This document shows positions 16,019-25,489 of a DNA stretch of 32,000 nt, in pieces. The DNA lies in assembly GCF_009734345.1 (NCBI RefSeq), contig NZ_CP032551.1, positions 270,001 to 302,000 on the forward strand, given 5' to 3'. The position numbers and the translations under genes are program-made. Position 1 is the stretch's first letter. Each line of letters begins with the position of its first letter. The notes under the pieces are model-generated. The model was not told where the DNA came from. It did not search any database and saw only the letters and a list, made by a program, of their open reading frames with translations. Origin of the DNA: Pseudidiomarina andamanensis. GTDB lineage: Bacteria; Pseudomonadota; Gammaproteobacteria; Enterobacterales; Alteromonadaceae.

Positions 16019-16105
16019 TGGTGCGGAGGGGGGGACTTGAACCCCCACGAGCGTTAGCTCACTAGCACCTGAAGCTAGCGCGTCTACCAATTCCGCCACC
16101 CCCGC
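16019..16105 (-). tRNA. tRNA-Leu (anticodon CAG)
   Basis: The reverse complement reads GCGGGGGTGGCGGAATTGGTAGACGCGCTAGCTTCAGGTGCTAGT...GGTTCAAGTCCCCCCCTCCGCACCA. It has a long variable arm and encoded CCA, and is near-identical in its conserved parts to E. coli tRNA-Leu(CAG). Confidence 0.93.
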
Positions 16106-16123
16106 AATACACAGGGGAAAAAG

Positions 16124-16198
16124 TGGCTGGGGTATCAGGATTTGAACCTGAGAATGGCGGGATCAAAACCCGCTGCCTTACCGCTTGGCTATACCCCA
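16124..16198 (-). tRNA. tRNA-Gln (anticodon UUG), copy 1
   Basis: The reverse complement reads TGGGGTATAGCCAAGCGGTAAGGCAGCGGGTTTTGATCCCGCCATTCTCAGGTTCAAATCCTGATACCCCAGCCA. 75 nt with a cloverleaf and encoded CCA. Confidence 0.93.
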
Positions 16199-16228
16199 AC
16201 ACTGGGTGCATCAAGAAGAGAGTGGCGA

Positions 16229-16303
16229 TGGCTGGGGTACCAGGATTTGAACCTGGGAATGGCGGGATCAAAACCCGCTGCCTTACCGCTTGGCTATACC
16301 CCA
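16229..16303 (-). tRNA. tRNA-Gln (anticodon UUG), copy 2
   Basis: Same sequence as copy 1 except for a compensatory pair in the T-stem (CCAGG/CCTGG versus TCAGG/CCTGA). Confidence 0.93.
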
Positions 16304-16331
16304 ACAGAATATACCGCCTGACAGTTTGAGT

Positions 16332-16416
16332 TGGTGCGGACGGAGAGACTTGAACTCTCACGCCGTGAGGCACTGGAACCTAAATCCAGCGTGTCTACCA
16401 ATTCCACCACGTCCGC
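16332..16416 (-). tRNA. tRNA-Leu (anticodon UAG)
   Basis: The reverse complement reads GCGGACGTGGTGGAATTGGTAGACACGCTGGATTTAGGTTCCAGTGCCTCACGGCGTGAGAGTTCAAGTCTCTCCGTCCGCACCA. It resembles E. coli leuW. Confidence 0.92.
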
Positions 16417-16433
16417 CCAAAAGGGAATTTGAT

Positions 16434-16510
16434 TGGTGGCTACGGCGAGATTCGAACTTGCGACCCCAGCATTATGAGTGCTGTGCTCTAACCAGCTGAG
16501 CTACGTAGCC
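16434..16510 (-). tRNA. Elongator tRNA-Met (anticodon CAU)
   Basis: The reverse complement reads GGCTACGTAGCTCAGCTGGTTAGAGCACAGCACTCATAATGCTGGGGTCGCAAGTTCGAATCTCGCCGTAGCCACCA. It is nearly identical to E. coli metT/metU elongator tRNA. Confidence 0.93.
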
Positions 16511-18897: not shown

Positions 18898-19572
18898 ATG
18901 ACCAAGTTTCAAATTGTTTTCCTAATGACATTATGGTTCACGCAGGGTTTTTCGGCAGTTTCCGCTCAGGAAACGACGTCTGTAGACGCATTGACCGTGA
19001 CAGTACTCGATAGCAATCAGCAGCCGTTGGCGCTTGCGGTTGTGAGTGTCAATGGTGTTGAGTTGGCAACATCTGAACAACCTACTGCAATTATGGATCA
19101 AGTAGATCGATTGTTTGTGCCCTATATTTTAGCCGTTCGTGAAAACGCGCAAGTGGCATTTCCGAACCGCGATAACATTCGTCATCAAGTGTATTCATTT
19201 TCAGAAGTTAAACCGTTCGAACTCCCTTTATATAGCAATCGTGAAGCTCCAGAGATTCAATTCGAGAATTCGGGCATTGTGGTGTTAGGCTGCAATATCC
19301 ATGATCATATGCAGGCTTATATTTATGTTAGCCCGCACGATTTATCTCGCCAAACAAACGCGCAGGGAACAGTAACGTTGCCGTTAGGCGCAACGCAAGT
19401 GCACGTTTGGTATCCGTCATTAACTGACGTGGTAACAGAAGAAATGGTGGTACCGATAGTGGCTGGACAAAAGCAATTGACGGTGACGTTACCGGTACAA
19501 GCACAACACCAAAGTCCGCCGCCCGCATCAGCATTGCAACAACGTTTTAATCGTCGGAAAAATAATAATTAA
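18898..19572 (+). CDS. Secreted cupredoxin-like protein, of the family I recall being annotated 'methylamine utilization protein'
   Basis: Signal peptide MTKFQIVFLMTLWFTQGFSAVSA|QE. Core segment VAFPNRDNIRHQVYSF...GIVVLGCNIHDHM carries His...Cys-x2-His-x2-Met in amicyanin-like spacing. GGGG lies 5 nt upstream of the ATG. The stop abuts the next gene's start (TAAATG). Confidence 0.7.
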   Translation: MTKFQIVFLMTLWFTQGFSAVSAQETTSVDALTVTVLDSNQQPLALAVVSVNGVELATSEQPTAIMDQVDRLFVPYILAVRENAQVAFPNRDNIRHQVYSFSEVKPFELPLYSNREAPEIQFENSGIVVLGCNIHDHMQAYIYVSPHDLSRQTNAQGTVTLPLGATQVHVWYPSLTDVVTEEMVVPIVAGQKQLTVTLPVQAQHQSPPPASALQQRFNRRKNNN

Positions 19573-21879
19573 ATGAAGATTAAAAGTTTTCGGTCACGAT
19601 TGTTATTGGTATTTACCGCACTTGCAGGTGCGGTTTTGCTGTTTGCGCTAATTGCTATTTGGTTAGCCACGTCACAACAATCTGAGCGAACGCTAGAACG
19701 CGAACTTGAAGTGAGTGAACGTGTTTTTGCTGAGCTTGTTGATGTGCGAGCTCAGCAATTACAACAAGCCGCCGAAGTTTTAACGACAGATTTCGGGTTT
19801 CGCGAGGCGATTGCCAGCAGTGATGAGAACACCATTATTTCAGCGCTAGTCAATCACGGTCAGCGTATTGGTACTGATCTGATTGTCGTTCAATCTCCGC
19901 AGGGCGAGGAAATTGCCGCAACACACGCAACACAGTTATTGCCACCTTTAGCGACGCTAACTAATGCCCCCGTTCAAGCTCAATTCGTTACCGTTAATGA
20001 AGAGATTTTTCAGATAGTGACGGTGCCGGTTCGCGCGCCGAATTTAATCGCATGGGCAACACTCGGGTTTGCTATTGATGATGATTTTGCGGTTTTAATG
20101 CGACAGCTGACCCATGCCGATATTACCTTTTTGAATCAACTTACCGGGACGATCTATGCAACCAGTTTAGATTCAGAACAGCGCGAGATGATGGCGGAGA
20201 ATGCAAGTAACTTGCAGCAACGCTTAGCTGCCAATGATATTGCAGCTCATGTTTCGCAATACAACCGTGATAGCGCTTCCATTAATACTGAAGCAAACTT
20301 GATGATTATTTTCAGTACCGACAAGCTTGAAGCAACTCAGGAGTTTTTAACACTGCAACGTCAGTATATTGGTATTGCACTGGCAACGTTGATCTTTGCC
20401 GGACTACTTGCGACCTTTACCGCCCGAAAAATAAGCCAACCAATCACAGCGCTTACTGACGCTGCTAAAAAACTGGGTGCCGGTGACTATCGAGAGCCAG
20501 TTTCGATTCATCGCGCCGATGAGTTTGGTGCGTTGAGTGATGCTTTTGAAGGAATGCGTCAGGGAATAGCAGAGCGCGAGCAACAAATTATATTTCAATT
20601 AGAACATGATTTACTGACCGGATTACCGAATCGAGTTTCCATTCGAGCTTTGTTGAAAAGTGCTATCGAGTCGCAACAGAGTGGCTATGTTGTCCTGATG
20701 AATGTTGCTCGCTTTGGCGAAGTGAATGACCGCTTTGGGCAGCAAGTTGGCGATGAGTTGTTGCGTATGATTGCAGAACGCCTACGCGCGGCGGTTCCGA
20801 AGAATTGGTCTGTGGGGCACCTCGGTGGCGATGAATTTGTGCTGGTCGGTAAGCGACAGAGTGAACCACAGGTGAATGCTCTCATTGTCTCGCTAAAAAC
20901 TGAATTGAGCTTGCCCTGGTGGTTAGAAGAAACCAGTTATATGTTGGATTTTCATGCTGGTTATTTGGCATATCCTCATGCTGCCGATGATGCCGATAGC
21001 ATACTTCGGCGAGCTCAACTTTGTGCGCGCCAAGCGAAACGCGCAAGTGTTTTTGCGGTTGCGTACAGTCAAGGGATGGACGAGCAATATCTACGGCGTT
21101 TACAGATTGTTCAATCACTACCAAGTGCGGTTCGAGAACAGCGCTTGCAATTGCACTTTCAACCGAAGCTGTCGTGTCAAACCGGGCAGGTACTCGGTGT
21201 TGAGGCATTATTAAGGTGGCGTGATGAACAACTTGGTGTGGTTCGGCCCGATGAATTTATTCCGTTGGCGGAGCAAACGGGGGAAATTCAGCGTTTAACG
21301 CGATGGGTTTGTGGCGCCGCGTTGGACCAATTGCAACTGTGGCACGAGCAGGGGTTGCAATTGAGCTTAGCAATTAACTTGTCGGCACTTGATTTGCAAT
21401 GGTCTGAATTAGTTGCGTTTGTCACTGACTCGGCGAAGCAGCGAGGTTTGTCGCCGGCATGGATTACTTTAGAAGTAACCGAAAGTGCAGTGATGGTAGA
21501 CCCTGAACAGGCTATTTCGCGTTTGCAGGAGTTACGTGAAGTAGGATTCAAAATTGCGATTGACGATTATGGCACCGGATATGCGTCGCTGGCGCAACTC
21601 AAACGTCTACCAGCCGATGAGCTGAAGCTCGATCGATCGTTCATTCAACACATTGCATCGATACCTGAAGATGAAACTATTGTGCGCTCAACGATTTTGC
21701 TCGCACATGAATTGAAGTTAACCACTGTAGCCGAGGGTATTGAGGAAGATTCCGCTTGGCAAGTTTTAAAACAGTTGGGCTGTGATACGGTGCAAGGTTA
21801 TTACTTCAGTCGACCGCTCGCAGCGGCGCAGTTCGAAGAATGGTTGGATAATTACCAAAGAGAGAGTAGGCATGGGTAA
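19573..21879 (+). CDS. Inner-membrane signalling protein: TM, periplasmic sensor domain of about 230 aa, TM, HAMP, GGDEF, EAL (probable c-di-GMP phosphodiesterase)
   Basis: 768 aa. TM helices at about aa 11-32 and 266-284. HAMP at about 285-338. GGDEF motif at 418-422, preceded by LTGLPNR. EAL at 544-546 with the full catalytic set (LLRW, INLS, EVTES, DDYGTGY, KLDRSF, AEGIE, QGYYFSRP). Confidence 0.9.
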   Translation: MKIKSFRSRLLLVFTALAGAVLLFALIAIWLATSQQSERTLERELEVSERVFAELVDVRAQQLQQAAEVLTTDFGFREAIASSDENTIISALVNHGQRIGTDLIVVQSPQGEEIAATHATQLLPPLATLTNAPVQAQFVTVNEEIFQIVTVPVRAPNLIAWATLGFAIDDDFAVLMRQLTHADITFLNQLTGTIYATSLDSEQREMMAENASNLQQRLAANDIAAHVSQYNRDSASINTEANLMIIFSTDKLEATQEFLTLQRQYIGIALATLIFAGLLATFTARKISQPITALTDAAKKLGAGDYREPVSIHRADEFGALSDAFEGMRQGIAEREQQIIFQLEHDLLTGLPNRVSIRALLKSAIESQQSGYVVLMNVARFGEVNDRFGQQVGDELLRMIAERLRAAVPKNWSVGHLGGDEFVLVGKRQSEPQVNALIVSLKTELSLPWWLEETSYMLDFHAGYLAYPHAADDADSILRRAQLCARQAKRASVFAVAYSQGMDEQYLRRLQIVQSLPSAVREQRLQLHFQPKLSCQTGQVLGVEALLRWRDEQLGVVRPDEFIPLAEQTGEIQRLTRWVCGAALDQLQLWHEQGLQLSLAINLSALDLQWSELVAFVTDSAKQRGLSPAWITLEVTESAVMVDPEQAISRLQELREVGFKIAIDDYGTGYASLAQLKRLPADELKLDRSFIQHIASIPEDETIVRSTILLAHELKLTTVAEGIEEDSAWQVLKQLGCDTVQGYYFSRPLAAAQFEEWLDNYQRESRHG

Positions 21880-22723
21880 ATTAACTGGGCTTGTTATGCC
21901 AGCTTTGGCGGTTGCAACACTGTTTGTAAGCCAGAGTGCGATGGCTGATTTTGGCCGAATTATTGCAACGGGCGGTTTAACAACAGTCGAAGGCAGCGGC
22001 GGTGGCGGCCTAGTCCCATGGGCAACACTCTCGAGCTATGCCGAAGAAGGGCAGTGGGGCGGAACTGTCGCCTATAATCAAGCGGATGTGGATGACTATA
22101 AATTGACGGTAAAAGCTGCCACGCTGTCTTTTGATAATCGTTGGGAATTTAGTGTCGCCAAACAACAATTTGATTTACTAAGTCTTGGTGGAAGCCTGAA
22201 GCAGGATATTTATGGGATTAAATATCGAATTGCTGGTGATATTTTGTATGGTGATCTGCCGCAATTTACGGTTGGCATCCAGCATAAACGAAATCAGTCT
22301 TTGGACTTACCGCAGGCGGTTGGTGCACAAGATGATACAGGAACAGATTTCTATATAAGCGGCGCCAAAGTTTGGCTTGATGGTCTCTGGCATCGCACGT
22401 GGTTGGCGAACCTAACATTGCGAGCCACTAAGGCTAACGAAATGGGGTTACTTGGTTTCGGTGGTGATGCGAATAACAGTTATGAGCTACAGAGCGAGCT
22501 TGCCGTCGGTATGTTCATTAATCGGCATTGGGTGATTGGTGTGGAATATCGACAGAAACCCAATAACTTAGGCTTCGCGAAAGAGCATGACTGGCATGAC
22601 GTTTTCGTGGGATGGTTTCCGCATAAGCGTGTTGCAGTCGCGTTGGCATACACGCAATTGCAATCAATAGCCGGTGCTGATGGTCAAGATGGCATCTATG
22701 GTTCACTTCAGGTTACGTTTTAA
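21872..22723 (+). CDS. Secreted beta-barrel-like protein, probably outer membrane (DUF3034-like, assigned from memory)
   Basis: Signal peptide MGKLTGLVMPALAVATLFVSQSAMA|DF, a Gly-rich GGLTTVEGSGGGGLVPWATL segment, alternating-hydrophobicity strands and the C-terminus YGSLQVTF (terminal Phe). The ATG at 21872 overlaps the upstream stop by 8 nt (ATGGGTAA) and follows GAGAGTAGG. The ORF-track start at 21782 is an in-gene extension. Confidence 0.7.
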   Translation: MGKLTGLVMPALAVATLFVSQSAMADFGRIIATGGLTTVEGSGGGGLVPWATLSSYAEEGQWGGTVAYNQADVDDYKLTVKAATLSFDNRWEFSVAKQQFDLLSLGGSLKQDIYGIKYRIAGDILYGDLPQFTVGIQHKRNQSLDLPQAVGAQDDTGTDFYISGAKVWLDGLWHRTWLANLTLRATKANEMGLLGFGGDANNSYELQSELAVGMFINRHWVIGVEYRQKPNNLGFAKEHDWHDVFVGWFPHKRVAVALAYTQLQSIAGADGQDGIYGSLQVTF

Positions 22724-22734
22724 GGAGATTCACA

Positions 22735-23151
22735 ATGATTCGAGCATACTTGCTTGGCTTCATTATCATGTTGGCGTTGCCGGCGAACGCGACCGAACGA
22801 ACGTTATATGACGAGCTTGGTCAGCAGCAGGGTATAAGCCAGCTCATGGAAGCCTTTATTCTCGAAATTGCTGAAGATGAGCGTGTTATTCATCACTTTG
22901 AAAATGTCGATATCGACCGTTTTCACCGCATGCTGTCGGAGCATATTTGTGATCTCTCTGGTGGCCCTTGCGATTATTCTGGCGAATCGATGGTGACGGT
23001 GCATACCGGAATGGATATTTCGCGTGCTGAATTTAATGCGATTGTCGAGCACTTGATGACCGCCATGGATCAGCAAAAGCTGCCGGTTAGTACACAAAAC
23101 CGATTACTTGCTATACTCGCTTCATTCCATAAGGAAGTGATTCACCAATAA
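22735..23151 (+). CDS. Group 1 truncated hemoglobin (trHbN-like) with an N-terminal Sec-type signal peptide
   Basis: Aligns without gaps to Synechocystis GlbN as I recall it, from TLYDELG through GGPCDYSGESMVTVHTG. The proximal His is conserved. The leader MIRAYLLGFIIMLALPANA|TE precedes the globin core. AGGAG lies 7 nt upstream of the ATG. Confidence 0.8.
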   Translation: MIRAYLLGFIIMLALPANATERTLYDELGQQQGISQLMEAFILEIAEDERVIHHFENVDIDRFHRMLSEHICDLSGGPCDYSGESMVTVHTGMDISRAEFNAIVEHLMTAMDQQKLPVSTQNRLLAILASFHKEVIHQ

Positions 23152-23172: not shown

Positions 23173-24549
23173 ATGATAAAAATAAAAATACCGCACACCT
23201 TAGTGCTGATGTTGTACATGATGATTGCAGCATTGATTCTTACCTGGGTTATTCCAGCTGGCGAATTTCAACGTACGGTTAATGATATTGGACAAACCGT
23301 TGTTCAGCCAGGCACTTACAGTGTTCTTGAAAAACAACCATTGCTGAGTCCGTTGACGTTACTTACGGTTATTCCGCAAGCGTTAGGCGATGCCCAGGCG
23401 GTTATCTTCTTTGTGCTATTAATTGGTGGCGTCATGGGTATTTTGCGCGCTACCGGTATGTTAGATGCGTTAATTGGCTTATTGCTTAAGAAGTTTGCCG
23501 ATAAGACCGGCTTGTTAATTCTCGGTGGCATGCTGACCTTCGGTATTTTCTCTGCCTTAATTGGTGTGGCTGAAGAGTATTTGATTTTTGTCGCCATGCT
23601 GGTGGCGCTCTGTCGAGCATTGAAACTTGATGGCATAACAGCAATGGGTATTTTGATAGTGGGTTATGGTATTGGCTATGGCTTATCTCTATTTAATCCA
23701 TTTACGTTACTGATTGCCCAAGCCGTTGCCGAAGTACCGCCGGCATCGGGATTATGGTACCGACTCGTTTTATGGCCAATATTGTTTGGCATCGCATTTC
23801 ATCATGTCTATGGCTATGCCAAACGCGTTGCTGCTGATCCTGCCGCCTCATTGCTTGCGGATATAACGCCGGCAAAAACCAATGAACAAGATGACTACCC
23901 AGCACTAAATGGCCGTCATAAAATCATTCTACTTGGCTTTGTCGCCGTACTTGGCGTGCTGATTTGGGGCATTAAAGTTCATGGTTGGTATTTGGTTGAG
24001 CTGAGTGCGTTATTTTTAGGTTTCGGTTTGTTTGCCGCTCTGGTTGCTAAAATGGGTGCTAGCGACGCAGCGAACAAGTTTATTGAAGGCGCTGCTGAAT
24101 TAACGGCAACGGCATTGCTCATTGGCTTTGCTCGATCGATTGCTATGATTATGGAACAGGGGCAGGTACTCGACACGGTTATTTATTACCTAGCGATGCC
24201 GGTTGAAGCTTTTGGGGCGCATTTTGGTGCGGTTAGTATGCTCATCATTCAAAGTATACTGAATTTGTTTATTCCTTCAGGAAGCGGACAAGCCTTTGTC
24301 ACCATGCCGATTATGGTCCCGATTGCCGATACAGCTGGTATTGGTCGTCAAATTGCGGTGTTGGCGTTCCAAATGGGCGATGGCTTGATGAACATGATTG
24401 TGCCGACTAATCCTGTATTAATGGGAATTTTAGGTTTAGCAGGTGTGCCCTACGAGCGTTGGTTTAAGTTCGTTGCCCCGTTGATGTTGAAGTTGTTATT
24501 TGCCTGTGCGATAGCAATGATTGTTGCTGTCGCGATAGGTTATCAATAA
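23173..24549 (+). CDS. YfcC-family (DcuC/C4-dicarboxylate-anaerobic-carrier-like) membrane transporter
   Basis: 458 aa with 10 or more TM helices. The N-terminus IPHTLVLMLYMMIAALILTWVIPAGEFQR resembles E. coli YfcC. It starts 21 nt after the globin stop with no intervening hairpin. Confidence 0.8.
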   Translation: MIKIKIPHTLVLMLYMMIAALILTWVIPAGEFQRTVNDIGQTVVQPGTYSVLEKQPLLSPLTLLTVIPQALGDAQAVIFFVLLIGGVMGILRATGMLDALIGLLLKKFADKTGLLILGGMLTFGIFSALIGVAEEYLIFVAMLVALCRALKLDGITAMGILIVGYGIGYGLSLFNPFTLLIAQAVAEVPPASGLWYRLVLWPILFGIAFHHVYGYAKRVAADPAASLLADITPAKTNEQDDYPALNGRHKIILLGFVAVLGVLIWGIKVHGWYLVELSALFLGFGLFAALVAKMGASDAANKFIEGAAELTATALLIGFARSIAMIMEQGQVLDTVIYYLAMPVEAFGAHFGAVSMLIIQSILNLFIPSGSGQAFVTMPIMVPIADTAGIGRQIAVLAFQMGDGLMNMIVPTNPVLMGILGLAGVPYERWFKFVAPLMLKLLFACAIAMIVAVAIGYQ

Positions 24550-24574: not shown

Positions 24575-25489
24575 ATGGATAGTGCAACATTGAACGAAGG
24601 TACGAAGACTGCGGCGGTACAAGAAGCTGTGCCGCCCTGTTTGGTATCGACACGTTGGCTGGCTGCGAACATTAAAAAAAGCCATGTTCATGTGTTGGAT
24701 GCGAGCATGACAAAGGTTGTTGGGCGCACGCCACTGGAATACAACGAACTCACAGTTATTCCCAATTCAATTTATTTAGACTTAGAGCAGCGGTTAACAG
24801 ATACCTCGTCGGCGCTACCCAATACCTTTCCGACCGCTGAGCAAGTGACACTAGCGCTACAAGAACTGGGTGTTAATAAAACCGATACGGTGGTTGTGTA
24901 TGACAACCAAGGCATTTACTCATCGCCACGAGCTTGGGTGATACTAAAAGCCATGGGGTTTGATAAGGTTTGTATTCTTGATGGTGGTTTGCCACAGTGG
25001 TTAGCCGATAACTATCCTGCCGCAACTGAATACGCGTTGCCGCGAGCAGCACGCGGCAACTTTGTCGCAAAGTTCAATAAAAGCTGGCTGGTGTCGTCAA
25101 AAGAAGTGCTCAAAGCAACCCAAAGTGGTTCAAGTAGTATTATCGATGCACGCTCACCAGACCGCTTCAATGGCACGAAACCAGAGCCAAGAGAAGGGAT
25201 GCGCAGTGGCCATATTCGCAGCTCTTTTAATTTGCCATTTCTCGAAGTTCTCGATGATAACCGTTATAGAAAACCTGATGACCTCGAAGAAATGTTTATT
25301 TCGTTGGTGGGCCCCAAATCACCCCATTTAATTTTGACCTGTGGTTCAGGTATCACGGCATGTATTTTATTAGTTGCGGCAAGAATCGCCGGTTTTACTG
25401 AAGTGCAACTCTATGATGGGTCATGGTCCGAATGGGGCGCCAATCCACAGCTCCCCATCGAACCAATCTCTTCTTCGAATAACCAATAA
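24575..25489 (+). CDS. sseA: Two-domain rhodanese, 3-mercaptopyruvate/thiosulfate sulfurtransferase (SseA-like)
   Basis: Tandem rhodanese domains with active-site loop CGSGITAC. 304 aa. The last codons and the stop lie inside the heptad repeat. Confidence 0.82.
   Translation: MDSATLNEGTKTAAVQEAVPPCLVSTRWLAANIKKSHVHVLDASMTKVVGRTPLEYNELTVIPNSIYLDLEQRLTDTSSALPNTFPTAEQVTLALQELGVNKTDTVVVYDNQGIYSSPRAWVILKAMGFDKVCILDGGLPQWLADNYPAATEYALPRAARGNFVAKFNKSWLVSSKEVLKATQSGSSSIIDARSPDRFNGTKPEPREGMRSGHIRSSFNLPFLEVLDDNRYRKPDDLEEMFISLVGPKSPHLILTCGSGITACILLVAARIAGFTEVQLYDGSWSEWGANPQLPIEPISSSNNQ

Follow-up and report, generated by a model that had tools for sequence, protein, structure and literature searches.

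A conserved gene cluster for a dCache_3-HAMP-GGDEF-EAL sensor, a cupredoxin-like protein, a DUF3034 protein and an exported truncated hemoglobin in Pseudidiomarina andamanensis

We analyzed a stretch of 32,000 nucleotides (nt) of the Pseudidiomarina andamanensis genome (assembly GCF_009734345.1, contig NZ_CP032551.1, positions 270,001 to 302,000 of the forward strand), here called the window, and in particular a cluster of four genes at 18898–23151 that encode a cupredoxin-like protein (protein 1), a membrane-bound sensor with HAMP, GGDEF and EAL domains (protein 2), a DUF3034 protein (protein 3) and a truncated hemoglobin (protein 4). An initial annotation of the window had described four tightly packed genes on the same strand. 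The open reading frames (ORFs), at 18898–19572, 19573–21879, 21872–22723 and 22735–23151, and all three junctions between them, read exactly so in the ORF list and in the sequence; these genes and all their features described below are on the + strand. At the first junction (19570–19575), the TAA stop abuts the ATG start. At the second (21872–21879), the DUF3034 start lies over the stop of the sensor gene in an 8-nt overlap, ATGGGTAA. The third (22721–22737) consists of a TAA, an 11-nt spacer containing GGAG (22724–22734) and an ATG, with AGGAG at 22723–22727 ahead of the globin start at 22735. The longest frame listed for gene 3 opens at a GTG at 21782, within gene 2; the ATG at 21872 was used instead, because it gives a normal signal peptide and a match to the start of the DUF3034 model. 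In orthologous clusters, the median distance was −4 nt at junction 1 (54 clusters), 0.5 nt at junction 2 (52 clusters) and 2 nt at junction 3 (52 clusters). The nearest database relatives of the four products are from Idiomarina and Pseudidiomarina.

Signal peptides and transmembrane segments were called heuristically in all proteins, from the n-h-c pattern and from hydropathy. Proteins 1, 3 and 4 have n-h-c regions ending in VSA↓Q, AMA↓D and ANA↓T, respectively, in agreement with the Sec-type signal peptides that had been assigned to three of the products. Signal-like presequences are found on the same three proteins in most orthologs, despite uncertain start codons.

Protein 1 (224 amino acids (aa); 18898–19572) is predicted to be a secreted, two-domain protein of the blue-copper type. 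Because no cupredoxin model in Pfam or NCBIfam matched it, its fold was taken from an AlphaFold2 (AF2) model, with a predicted local distance difference test (pLDDT) score of 88, and from a Foldseek search with that model, in which the top 50 matches comprised amicyanin, pseudoazurin, plastocyanin, the cupredoxin domain of NirK and CuA domains, at a probability of 1.00. By both, protein 1 has the Greek-key β-sandwich of the cupredoxin fold. A Marinobacter ortholog matched Pfam Cupredoxin_1 with E = 7.8e-4 (19.9 bits, under the cut-off of 27). Behind the signal peptide (aa 1–23; 18898–18966), the cupredoxin core (≈aa 60–145; 19075–19332) is nested between the first hairpin and the rest of a CarboxypepD_reg-like β-sandwich, as judged from the AF2 model and from weak Pfam CarboxypepD_reg matches to aa 32–52 of protein 1 and to the C-terminal half of one ortholog. 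The basic C-terminus (19510–19569; RFNRRKNNN) was modelled as a helix. C-terminal tails are basic in the family, and at many non-canonical loci they end in Tyr motifs (GYR, GYP, DAY, DDY).

The predicted type-1 copper ligands of protein 1 are His96 (19183–19185) and three residues of the loop Cys132-Asn-Ile-His135-Asp-His-Met138 (19291–19311), which has the spacing C-x2-H-x2-M. H96, C132, H135 and M138 did not vary among 24 diverse homologs, nor among 81 sequences drawn from every genomic context, the latter figure being biased in that the genome scan was seeded on two of the conserved motifs. The ligand set was hence re-tested in an independent sample found through DUF3034, and was present in 58 of 58 complete sequences. 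Protein 1 thus appears to be an amicyanin-like type-1 copper cupredoxin, with copper binding predicted from the model and the conserved ligands. The earlier description of this protein as cupredoxin-like is upheld by the fold, the Foldseek matches and the invariant ligands, though not by a Pfam cupredoxin search. Its family comprises 2454 database clusters, with source names such as “methylamine utilization protein”, plastocyanin and cupredoxin. The first of these is a misnomer, since no methylamine dehydrogenase genes are conserved among the neighbors; only the genes for the sensor, DUF3034 and the globin are shared beyond the genus.

Protein 2 (768 aa; 19573–21879) is an inner-membrane sensor enzyme by its Pfam domains and hydropathy. 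Its two transmembrane segments, TM1 (aa 11–29; 19603–19659) and TM2 (aa 266–284; 20368–20424), enclose a periplasmic part of ≈236 aa (19660–20367), close to the ≈230 aa first estimated. Pfam identifies this part as dCache_3 (PF14827; aa 40–219, 39 bits against a cut-off of 25.7), while a PDB sequence search with it returned no solved homolog. The most conserved stretch of the periplasmic domain, aa 60–100 (19750–19872), has a per-block conservation equal to that of the EAL domain; it contains the conserved residues L63, L70, D73, F76, A79, D84, T87, S90, L92, N94 and R98 and is a candidate partner-binding surface.

The cytoplasmic part of protein 2 consists of HAMP (20416–20568), degenerate GGDEF (20605–21045) and EAL (21112–21816) domains. 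The EAL domain (Pfam E = 5e-75) can be aligned to active EAL structures, and its motifs (QPK, ExLxRW, N, ExTE, DDxGTG, KxD, EGxE and QG) are all invariant in 55 orthologs. The GGDEF sequence itself is retained in protein 2, but N377, A379 and G382 replace the D-x-D and K of active cyclases in an alignment to a solved GGDEF-EAL structure. In most orthologs the signature is degenerate as well, with the first Gly kept in 9 of the 55 and the upstream metal-binding Asp in 4. The combination of signature, upstream Asp and Lys/Asn/Asp substrate residues that marks an active diguanylate cyclase is thus lacking in protein 2. Because the EAL motifs are invariant and the GGDEF domain is degenerate, protein 2 is most likely a phosphodiesterase only, with hydrolysis of cyclic di-GMP (c-di-GMP) as its output. 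The HAMP-GGDEF-EAL architecture of the initial annotation was confirmed by Pfam, and the c-di-GMP enzyme it described is narrowed to this one activity.

Protein 3 (283 aa; 21872–22723) matches PF11231 (DUF3034) over model positions 1–255 of 255, with E = 3.9e-101. An AF2 model made from 24 homologs has 12 long antiparallel strands (≈22055–22717) at moderate confidence (pLDDT 70), and the best Foldseek matches of this model in the PDB were FapF, OmpG, NanC, KdgM and a COG4313 channel. The similarity to FapF (TM-score ≈0.5) is generic to 12-strand barrels. Protein 3 ends in Phe, and 50 of 55 orthologs likewise end in an aromatic residue (F, W or Y). With a signal peptide (21872–21946), a barrel model and an aromatic β-signal, protein 3 is predicted to be an outer-membrane barrel, much as had been supposed. 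Between the signal peptide and the barrel lies a Gly-rich segment (aa 26–58; 21947–22045) with the consensus ATGGxTTIEGSAGGGLVPWATLSSY, including invariant G, P and W residues. It is among the most conserved parts of DUF3034, is modelled with a pLDDT below 50, and could be a plug or a partner-binding element. Literature searches found no function for DUF3034; a mention of “DUF3034” in a retron paper stands there within a DUF3037 context.

Protein 4 (138 aa; 22735–23151) is an exported truncated hemoglobin (trHb). Pfam Bac_globin matched it with 55.8 bits (cut-off 21; E = 7e-15), and its best PDB matches were group 1 trHbs (E = 6e-15), with a gap-free alignment. The proximal His90 (F8; 23002–23004), F55 (CD1), G77 and P78 are conserved, as are residues of the G helix, and protein 4 is accordingly classified as a group 1 trHb (trHbN), with predicted binding of heme b. 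Cys72 (22948–22950) and Cys79 (22969–22971) flank the GGP hinge and, like His90, are invariant in the 55 orthologs from genomes and in 76 independent orthologs from metagenomes. This invariant Cys pair fits an oxidizing compartment. The globin of the window and its Pseudidiomarina relatives have a plain signal peptide (22735–22791 in the window) with no lipobox. A lipobox is found at the end of the presequence in 44 of the 55 genome orthologs and 61 of the 76 metagenome orthologs, none of the listed sequences having Asp at position +2; the prediction for most lineages is therefore an outer-membrane lipoprotein. The secreted truncated hemoglobin of the initial annotation thus stands as a group 1 trHb with an export signal, but in most lineages as a lipoprotein rather than a soluble protein.

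In characterized trHbNs, Tyr B10 and Gln E7/E11 stabilize O2 and serve nitric oxide (NO) dioxygenation. This distal hydrogen-bond network is absent in protein 4 and in both sets of orthologs. The corresponding positions of protein 4 are Ile42 (B10), Phe63 (E7) and Leu67 (E11), and the orthologs have I, L or V at B10, F, L or V at E7 and mostly L, F or I at E11. Apolar pockets in H-NOX sensors disfavor O2 and favor NO, and by analogy it is plausible that the apolar distal pocket of the globin resembles the O2-excluding strategy of NO-selective H-NOX proteins.

The cluster is found in well over a hundred loci. A scan with the cupredoxin profile, using one genome per species, gave at least 600 confirmed matches among 185,579 species genomes. 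Counts for cupredoxin-centered loci refer here to the best 80 of these confirmed loci, and counts for DUF3034-centered loci to the best 80 of 549 confirmed metagenome loci. All four genes are clustered in 54 of the 80 cupredoxin-centered loci, from more than 20 genera, in the same order in 52 and rearranged in two (L065 and L075). This bears out the co-occurrence on which the initial proposal of a functional unit depended. In the other loci, the cupredoxin-like gene is accompanied by a GGDEF-EAL gene at contig ends (two loci), by a GGDEF-EAL gene only (two), by a divergent GGDEF-EAL gene (four) or by a dCache_3-HAMP-Guanylate_cyc gene (five); in the remaining 13, a sensor of the dCache_3 kind was not detected. 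Around DUF3034, all 77 evaluable loci have the globin, 70 of 73 have the GGDEF-EAL sensor gene immediately upstream, and 59 of 62 have the cupredoxin-like gene; four apparent absences of GGDEF-EAL proved to be ORF-calling artefacts. No fifth conserved gene was found around the clusters beyond genus-level synteny.

Carriers include Pseudidiomarina, Alteromonas, Paraglaciecola, Pseudoalteromonas, Colwellia, many Pseudomonas, Stutzerimonas, Halomonas, Marinimicrobium and Saccharospirillum, as well as Methylophaga, Steroidobacter, Marinobacter, a member of the Lysobacterales and a member of the Comamonadaceae. The cluster is thus spread over the Alteromonadales, Pseudomonadales, Oceanospirillales, Cellvibrionales, Methylophaga, Lysobacterales, Steroidobacterales and Burkholderiales, and its clustering is confirmed to be far beyond chance.

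The cupredoxin-like gene adjoins a dCache_3-HAMP protein in 67 of the 80 cupredoxin-centered loci, with more than one kind of output domain. Five of them, which come from Myxococcota, Nitrospiria, Spirochaetales, Rokubacteria and Aliikangiella, have a class III cyclase (Guanylate_cyc) as output. Two metagenome loci have the order DUF3034, globin, cupredoxin-like gene and dCache_3-HAMP-Ser/Thr kinase (Pkinase). The periplasmic domains of these sensors are mutually recognizable (phmmer E from 1e-15 to 1e-23), and adjacency of the cupredoxin-like gene follows the dCache_3-HAMP sensor across the GGDEF-EAL, Guanylate_cyc and Pkinase outputs. Cognate input partners are usually recognized by gene adjacency that tracks the sensor domain regardless of the output, and we infer that the dCache_3 receptor has its cognate periplasmic partner in the cupredoxin-like protein. 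The re-use with cyclase (five loci) and kinase (two loci) outputs supports the periplasmic-partner logic of c-di-GMP control suggested in the initial annotation. An exhaustive search with the periplasmic domain gave 1375 representatives at 50% clustering, mostly of GGDEF-EAL length, some of the relatives having GGDEF-only, histidine-kinase, hybrid-kinase or cyclase outputs.

Both Pkinase loci (L139, 834–5725; L149, 6971–11864) lie next to ruvA, with a Porin_5-like protein coming next in L149. In locus L013 (3321–7760), the cupredoxin-like gene precedes genes for a sigma-54 activator and a response regulator, with a hybrid histidine kinase that weakly matches HNOBA encoded between them; this is possibly another signaling context for the cupredoxin-like gene.

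DUF3034 and the globin are strictly paired within the cluster. They occur as a lone two-gene pair in Granulosicoccus, and at one further locus only the sensor is missing from the set of four. In a mirror-tree analysis based on partial correlations controlled for the cytoplasmic domains, the strongest excess co-evolution was between DUF3034 and the globin (partial r = 0.57, p = 0.001), while the cupredoxin-like protein gave values of 0.30 with DUF3034 and 0.28 with the globin (p = 0.001). DUF3034 and the globin form an obligate pair that is able to exist without the other two genes.

Two further families, for which no homology to DUF3034, PDB or Pfam entries could be detected, are found beside the cupredoxin-like gene in loci lacking DUF3034. 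One, of ≈300 aa with a signal-like N-terminus, is encoded directly upstream in 10 loci (L033, 6191–7786; L049, 6992–8630; L051, 7036–8594; L062, L073, L077, L032, L040, L078 and L080); in L033 and L049 it is preceded by a gene for an oxidoreductase of the type 2 NADH dehydrogenase (NDH-2) type. The other, of ≈420 aa and also with a signal-like N-terminus, is encoded directly downstream in seven loci (L022, 8563–9876; L046, 8536–9840; L064, 8639–9883; L041, L059, L061 and L067), four of which have a divergent dCache_3-HAMP-GGDEF-EAL gene on the other side of the cupredoxin-like gene. Both families are called putative outer-membrane proteins on the basis of their signal-like N-termini, mostly aromatic C-termini, composition and very weak OMP_b-brl/Porin matches; a β-amphipathicity heuristic applied to them did not separate even the positive control. 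Counting the three unrelated families together, a putative outer-membrane protein adjoins the cupredoxin-like gene in 72 of 78 evaluable loci.

Several loci depart from the common arrangement in other ways. In two Pseudomonas loci (L015, 8530–10903; L036, 8669–11014), the GGDEF-EAL gene is split into two ORFs while the other three genes are intact, a split that a frameshift, pseudogene formation or a sequencing error could explain. In several lineages, a second GGDEF and/or EAL gene is convergent just past the globin gene, namely in L074 (12205–13650, − strand), L009, L014, L024, L039 and L048; the one in Methylophaga bears a related periplasmic domain of the dCache_3 type. In Marinobacter (L082 and L083, 2286–2936), an extra unannotated protein of 216–229 aa is encoded directly upstream of the cupredoxin-like gene. 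The extra protein of L082 was ruled out by hhalign as a cupredoxin-like relative, as were small proteins encoded upstream of the sensor in L132 and L152.

In the window, tight packing on the + strand continues past 23151, where the initial annotation had ended its four-gene unit. Pfam and NCBIfam identify a DcuC/YfcC-like transporter (23173–24549), 21 nt after the globin gene, and a 3-mercaptopyruvate-sulfurtransferase-like rhodanese (24575–25489), 25 nt after the transporter gene. No terminator-like site was found from the globin gene to the rhodanese gene, and both genes may be co-transcribed with the cluster in this genome. The four genes hold as a unit in that the transporter and rhodanese are kept downstream of the cluster only in Pseudidiomarina, and the two were rejected as members of the system because their conservation is restricted to close relatives. 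A rhodanese gene is also found ≈3 kb downstream in two Pseudoalteromonas loci (L057 and L068); a sulfur link through the downstream rhodanese is possible but unsupported. Scans for sigma-70 promoters and intrinsic terminators performed at chance level, and the operon ends were defined by neither. An Rfam scan matched only the tRNA cluster, with no match upstream of the four genes. This cluster consists of five tRNA genes on the − strand (16019–16510; Leu-CAG, Gln-TTG, Gln-TTG, Leu-TAG and Met-CAT), and the ORFs listed at 16062–16499 are spurious translations of them.

The best reading of the cluster is a widespread transmembrane signaling system assisted by accessory proteins, with metalloproteins as the partners. 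In its fuller form, the four genes would constitute one envelope-spanning device for partner-assisted redox or gas sensing, a proposal to which we give an even chance. The receptor would be the inner-membrane dCache_3-HAMP protein, with a non-catalytic GGDEF domain and an active EAL domain, and its output c-di-GMP breakdown. Its input would not be a free small molecule, but would be delivered by the three extracytoplasmic accessory proteins: the exported heme globin, an outer-membrane lipoprotein in most lineages, would pair obligately with the DUF3034 barrel, and the periplasmic type-1 copper cupredoxin would bridge this pair to the receptor. The signal would most likely be the redox or gas status at the cell periphery, in the form of O2, NO or another oxidant. 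It would be captured by the heme in its apolar pocket, followed by one-electron transfer to or from the copper center, and what the receptor senses would be whether the cupredoxin is in its Cu(I) or Cu(II) state, or whether it is occupied. What the analysis shows is the arrangement of the genes, their families and folds, the conserved ligand residues and export signals, the intact EAL beside a degenerate GGDEF, the co-occurrence across genomes and the recurrence of one cupredoxin–sensor pair with other outputs; that cofactors are bound, that the proteins touch and exchange electrons, which signal is read and in which direction it regulates are the elements of this scheme that we infer. The cupredoxin-like protein would communicate with the outer-membrane globin–barrel complex, probably by electron transfer. 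In cupredoxins with the short amicyanin-type loop, Cu(I) at close to neutral pH is accompanied by protonation of the exposed His ligand, which then flips. By analogy, such a flip could plausibly give protein 1 a redox-dependent surface change at the usual docking patch.

A more specific version is that an electron-relay module sets the redox state of the cupredoxin, which would itself be the direct ligand of a dCache_3 receptor family with several outputs. The O2, NO or oxidant status at the surface would be passed through a globin anchored in the outer membrane and its dedicated DUF3034 barrel to the redox state of the cupredoxin, and from there to dCache_3 receptors wired to c-di-GMP, cyclic AMP/cyclic GMP, Ser/Thr-phosphorylation or His-kinase outputs. 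We put this version forward tentatively, as a possibility with less than an even chance. If true, a cupredoxin would for the first time act as a signaling ligand, DUF3034 would have its first function, and extracytoplasmic sensor globins would be a new class.

A number of observations weigh against a sensing device of this kind. A detectable dCache_3 neighbor is lacking in 13 of the 80 cupredoxin-centered loci, DUF3034 and the globin exist without the sensor and cupredoxin-like genes, and three loci contain the sensor, DUF3034 and globin genes with no cupredoxin-like gene nearby. The mirror-tree value for the cupredoxin-like protein and the periplasmic sensor domain was ≈0.02 and not significant; the domain is highly divergent, with distances near saturation, and for this reason we did not count the result as a refutation. 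Type-1 copper sites are rigid and change little in structure upon oxidation or reduction, so that binding which depends on the redox state is not a trivial matter. Since the potentials of these sites usually exceed those of globin hemes, the scheme assigns no direction to the transfer. Copper and heme binding are themselves predictions, and the scheme offers no route for heme b to the exported globin.

One alternative is a metabolic or protective role, in which the three exported proteins form a periplasmic electron-transfer module and the phosphodiesterase is only co-regulated with it or senses its product, with no contact to the receptor. Examples would be detoxification of NO or peroxide, or reduction of O2, by the globin, with the cupredoxin as the electron carrier. 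Roles in electron transfer and as NO dioxygenases or oxidase-type proteins are classical for cupredoxins and truncated hemoglobins. Exported trHb domains fused to multiheme cytochromes have been proposed as periplasmic O2 reductases in cable bacteria (PMC11976967), a precedent for such a module. The existence of DUF3034 and globin genes without any sensor, that of the cupredoxin-like gene with a putative outer-membrane protein and no sensor, in some loci beside NDH-2, and the absence of a cupredoxin–sensor signal in the mirror-tree test all point in the same direction. However, a metabolic module leaves unexplained why the cupredoxin-like gene adjoins one dCache_3-HAMP family across four phyla outside the Proteobacteria and three outputs, and the cluster has no conserved reductase, oxidase or cytochrome gene alongside it. 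We consider this explanation unlikely, though with a real claim to attention.

The invariant copper ligands, together with the putative outer-membrane protein beside the cupredoxin-like gene in nearly all evaluable loci, might instead point to the sensing or handling of copper, with the receptor reading the apo or holo state of the cupredoxin or a copper hand-off, and with the barrel as a channel for copper or other metals. Such a role would leave the strictly co-occurring heme globin without a function. In addition, type-1 sites bind copper tightly and are generally ill-suited to reversible sensing, cop, cus and pco genes are absent from the conserved neighborhood, and the Foldseek matches of the barrel show no special likeness to copper channels. 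Copper sensing is thus a doubtful explanation, with a low probability in our estimate.

A barrel paired with an outer-membrane lipoprotein is the typical layout of systems for nutrient capture and for surface-lipoprotein export. With most globin orthologs predicted to be lipoproteins and FapF as the top structural match of DUF3034, the barrel and globin could form a device for the capture or export of heme or iron, in which the barrel would move the globin or heme over the outer membrane by Slam/FapF-type secretion and the sensor would report heme or iron status. The likeness to FapF, however, is that of any 12-strand barrel, the globin of the window organism has no lipobox, no TonB-dependent receptor, ATP-binding cassette (ABC) importer or heme oxygenase is conserved, and the cupredoxin is left without a role; we regard such a device as very unlikely. 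Finally, chance adjacency or shared ancestry of functionally unrelated genes is effectively refuted by the comparative data, since both search directions recover the conserved cluster, which spans orders and classes, all four genes are retained despite the changed order in L065 and L075, the junctions overlap and domains are swapped.

The input signals of most bacterial c-di-GMP enzymes lack identification, and an envelope-spanning sensing system of the kind preferred here would offer a concrete, widespread and testable input pathway, in carriers that include Pseudomonas, Marinobacter, Halomonas, Alteromonas and Pseudoalteromonas. If this reading is correct, a blue-copper protein would gain a signaling role beyond bioenergetics, DUF3034 would acquire a function, globin-based sensing would extend to the periplasm and outer membrane, and one input module would feed at least three to four second-messenger or phosphorylation outputs. 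The widespread misannotation as “methylamine utilization protein” would also be corrected. As the initial annotation had anticipated, no characterized system of this composition was found in literature searches; no description of the cluster was found either, although papers in subscription journals were mostly outside the searched set and an earlier account is possible.

The closest parallels are with systems in which a membrane-bound enzyme is controlled by proteins encoded next to it. Pseudomonas and E. coli have one such system in YfiB-YfiR-YfiN (TpbB), in which the c-di-GMP enzyme sits in the inner membrane and carries HAMP and a sensor domain on the periplasmic side, while a small, redox-sensitive periplasmic partner encoded next to it and an outer-membrane lipoprotein complete the set. 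The three-compartment logic is alike, but there is no homology: the NCBIfam DgcN/YfiN model scores 96.5 bits on protein 2 against a cut-off of 325, and the NCBIfam YfiR and YfiB models matched none of the four products. The partners differ as well, being a cupredoxin, a heme globin and a barrel in the cluster, as opposed to YfiR and the Pal-like YfiB. Moreover, the output of the cluster would be a phosphodiesterase and its partners are predicted to carry metal cofactors, whereas the output of YfiN is a cyclase. In NspS-MbaA of Vibrio cholerae, in which MbaA is a GGDEF-EAL protein, and in LuxP-LuxQ and TorT-TorS, an adjacent-encoded periplasmic protein binds the tandem-PAS/Cache-like domain of the receptor and sets its output. 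The partners in these systems are ligand-carrying solute-binding proteins, while the partner in the cluster has a predicted copper site and no solute-binding fold.

A hemoprotein gas sensor is encoded in an operon with a GGDEF/EAL enzyme in the H-NOX- and NosP-associated c-di-GMP enzymes and in DosC/DosP. These systems resemble the cluster in having a stand-alone hemoprotein together with a GGDEF/EAL enzyme, and in an apolar heme pocket as a possible selectivity device. Unlike the exported 2-on-2 globin of the cluster, they are cytoplasmic and use H-NOX, NosP, PAS and sensor-globin folds, and their hemoproteins do not come with copper and barrel proteins. The Cyc2–rusticyanin chain of Acidithiobacillus places a heme-bearing outer-membrane barrel beside a periplasmic cupredoxin, and in the TorC–TorS feedback of E. 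coli an electron-transfer protein touches the periplasmic domain of a sensor. Both are analogies only; the heme protein of the cluster is a globin and is separate from the barrel.

The individual proteins combine familiar and divergent features in a similar way. Protein 1 shares its predicted fold and the short C-x2-H-x2-M loop with amicyanin (MauC) and other type-1 cupredoxins, but is only ≈16–20% identical to them and has an extra β-sandwich domain around the core. Protein 4 aligns end to end with the group 1 trHbs of Mycobacterium (HbN), Tetrahymena and Chlamydomonas, including the proximal His, the CD1 Phe and the GGP hinge. It is unlike known trHbNs in being exported, in the invariant Cys72 and Cys79, and in having Ile/Leu/Val, Phe/Leu and Leu at B10, E7 and E11, respectively. 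Outside the cytoplasm, the only trHb domains found as a precedent were those in the multiheme fusions of cable bacteria (PMC11976967). DUF3034 is like the FapF, NanC, KdgM and COG4313 channels in its predicted 12 strands, size and C-terminal aromatic residue, but with 9–13% identity it has no sequence similarity to them, and it has a conserved Gly-rich N-terminal segment of its own. Each product of the cluster thus belongs to a known superfamily (cupredoxin, trHbN, EAL, dCache_3 or outer-membrane barrel), yet departs from its characterized relatives.

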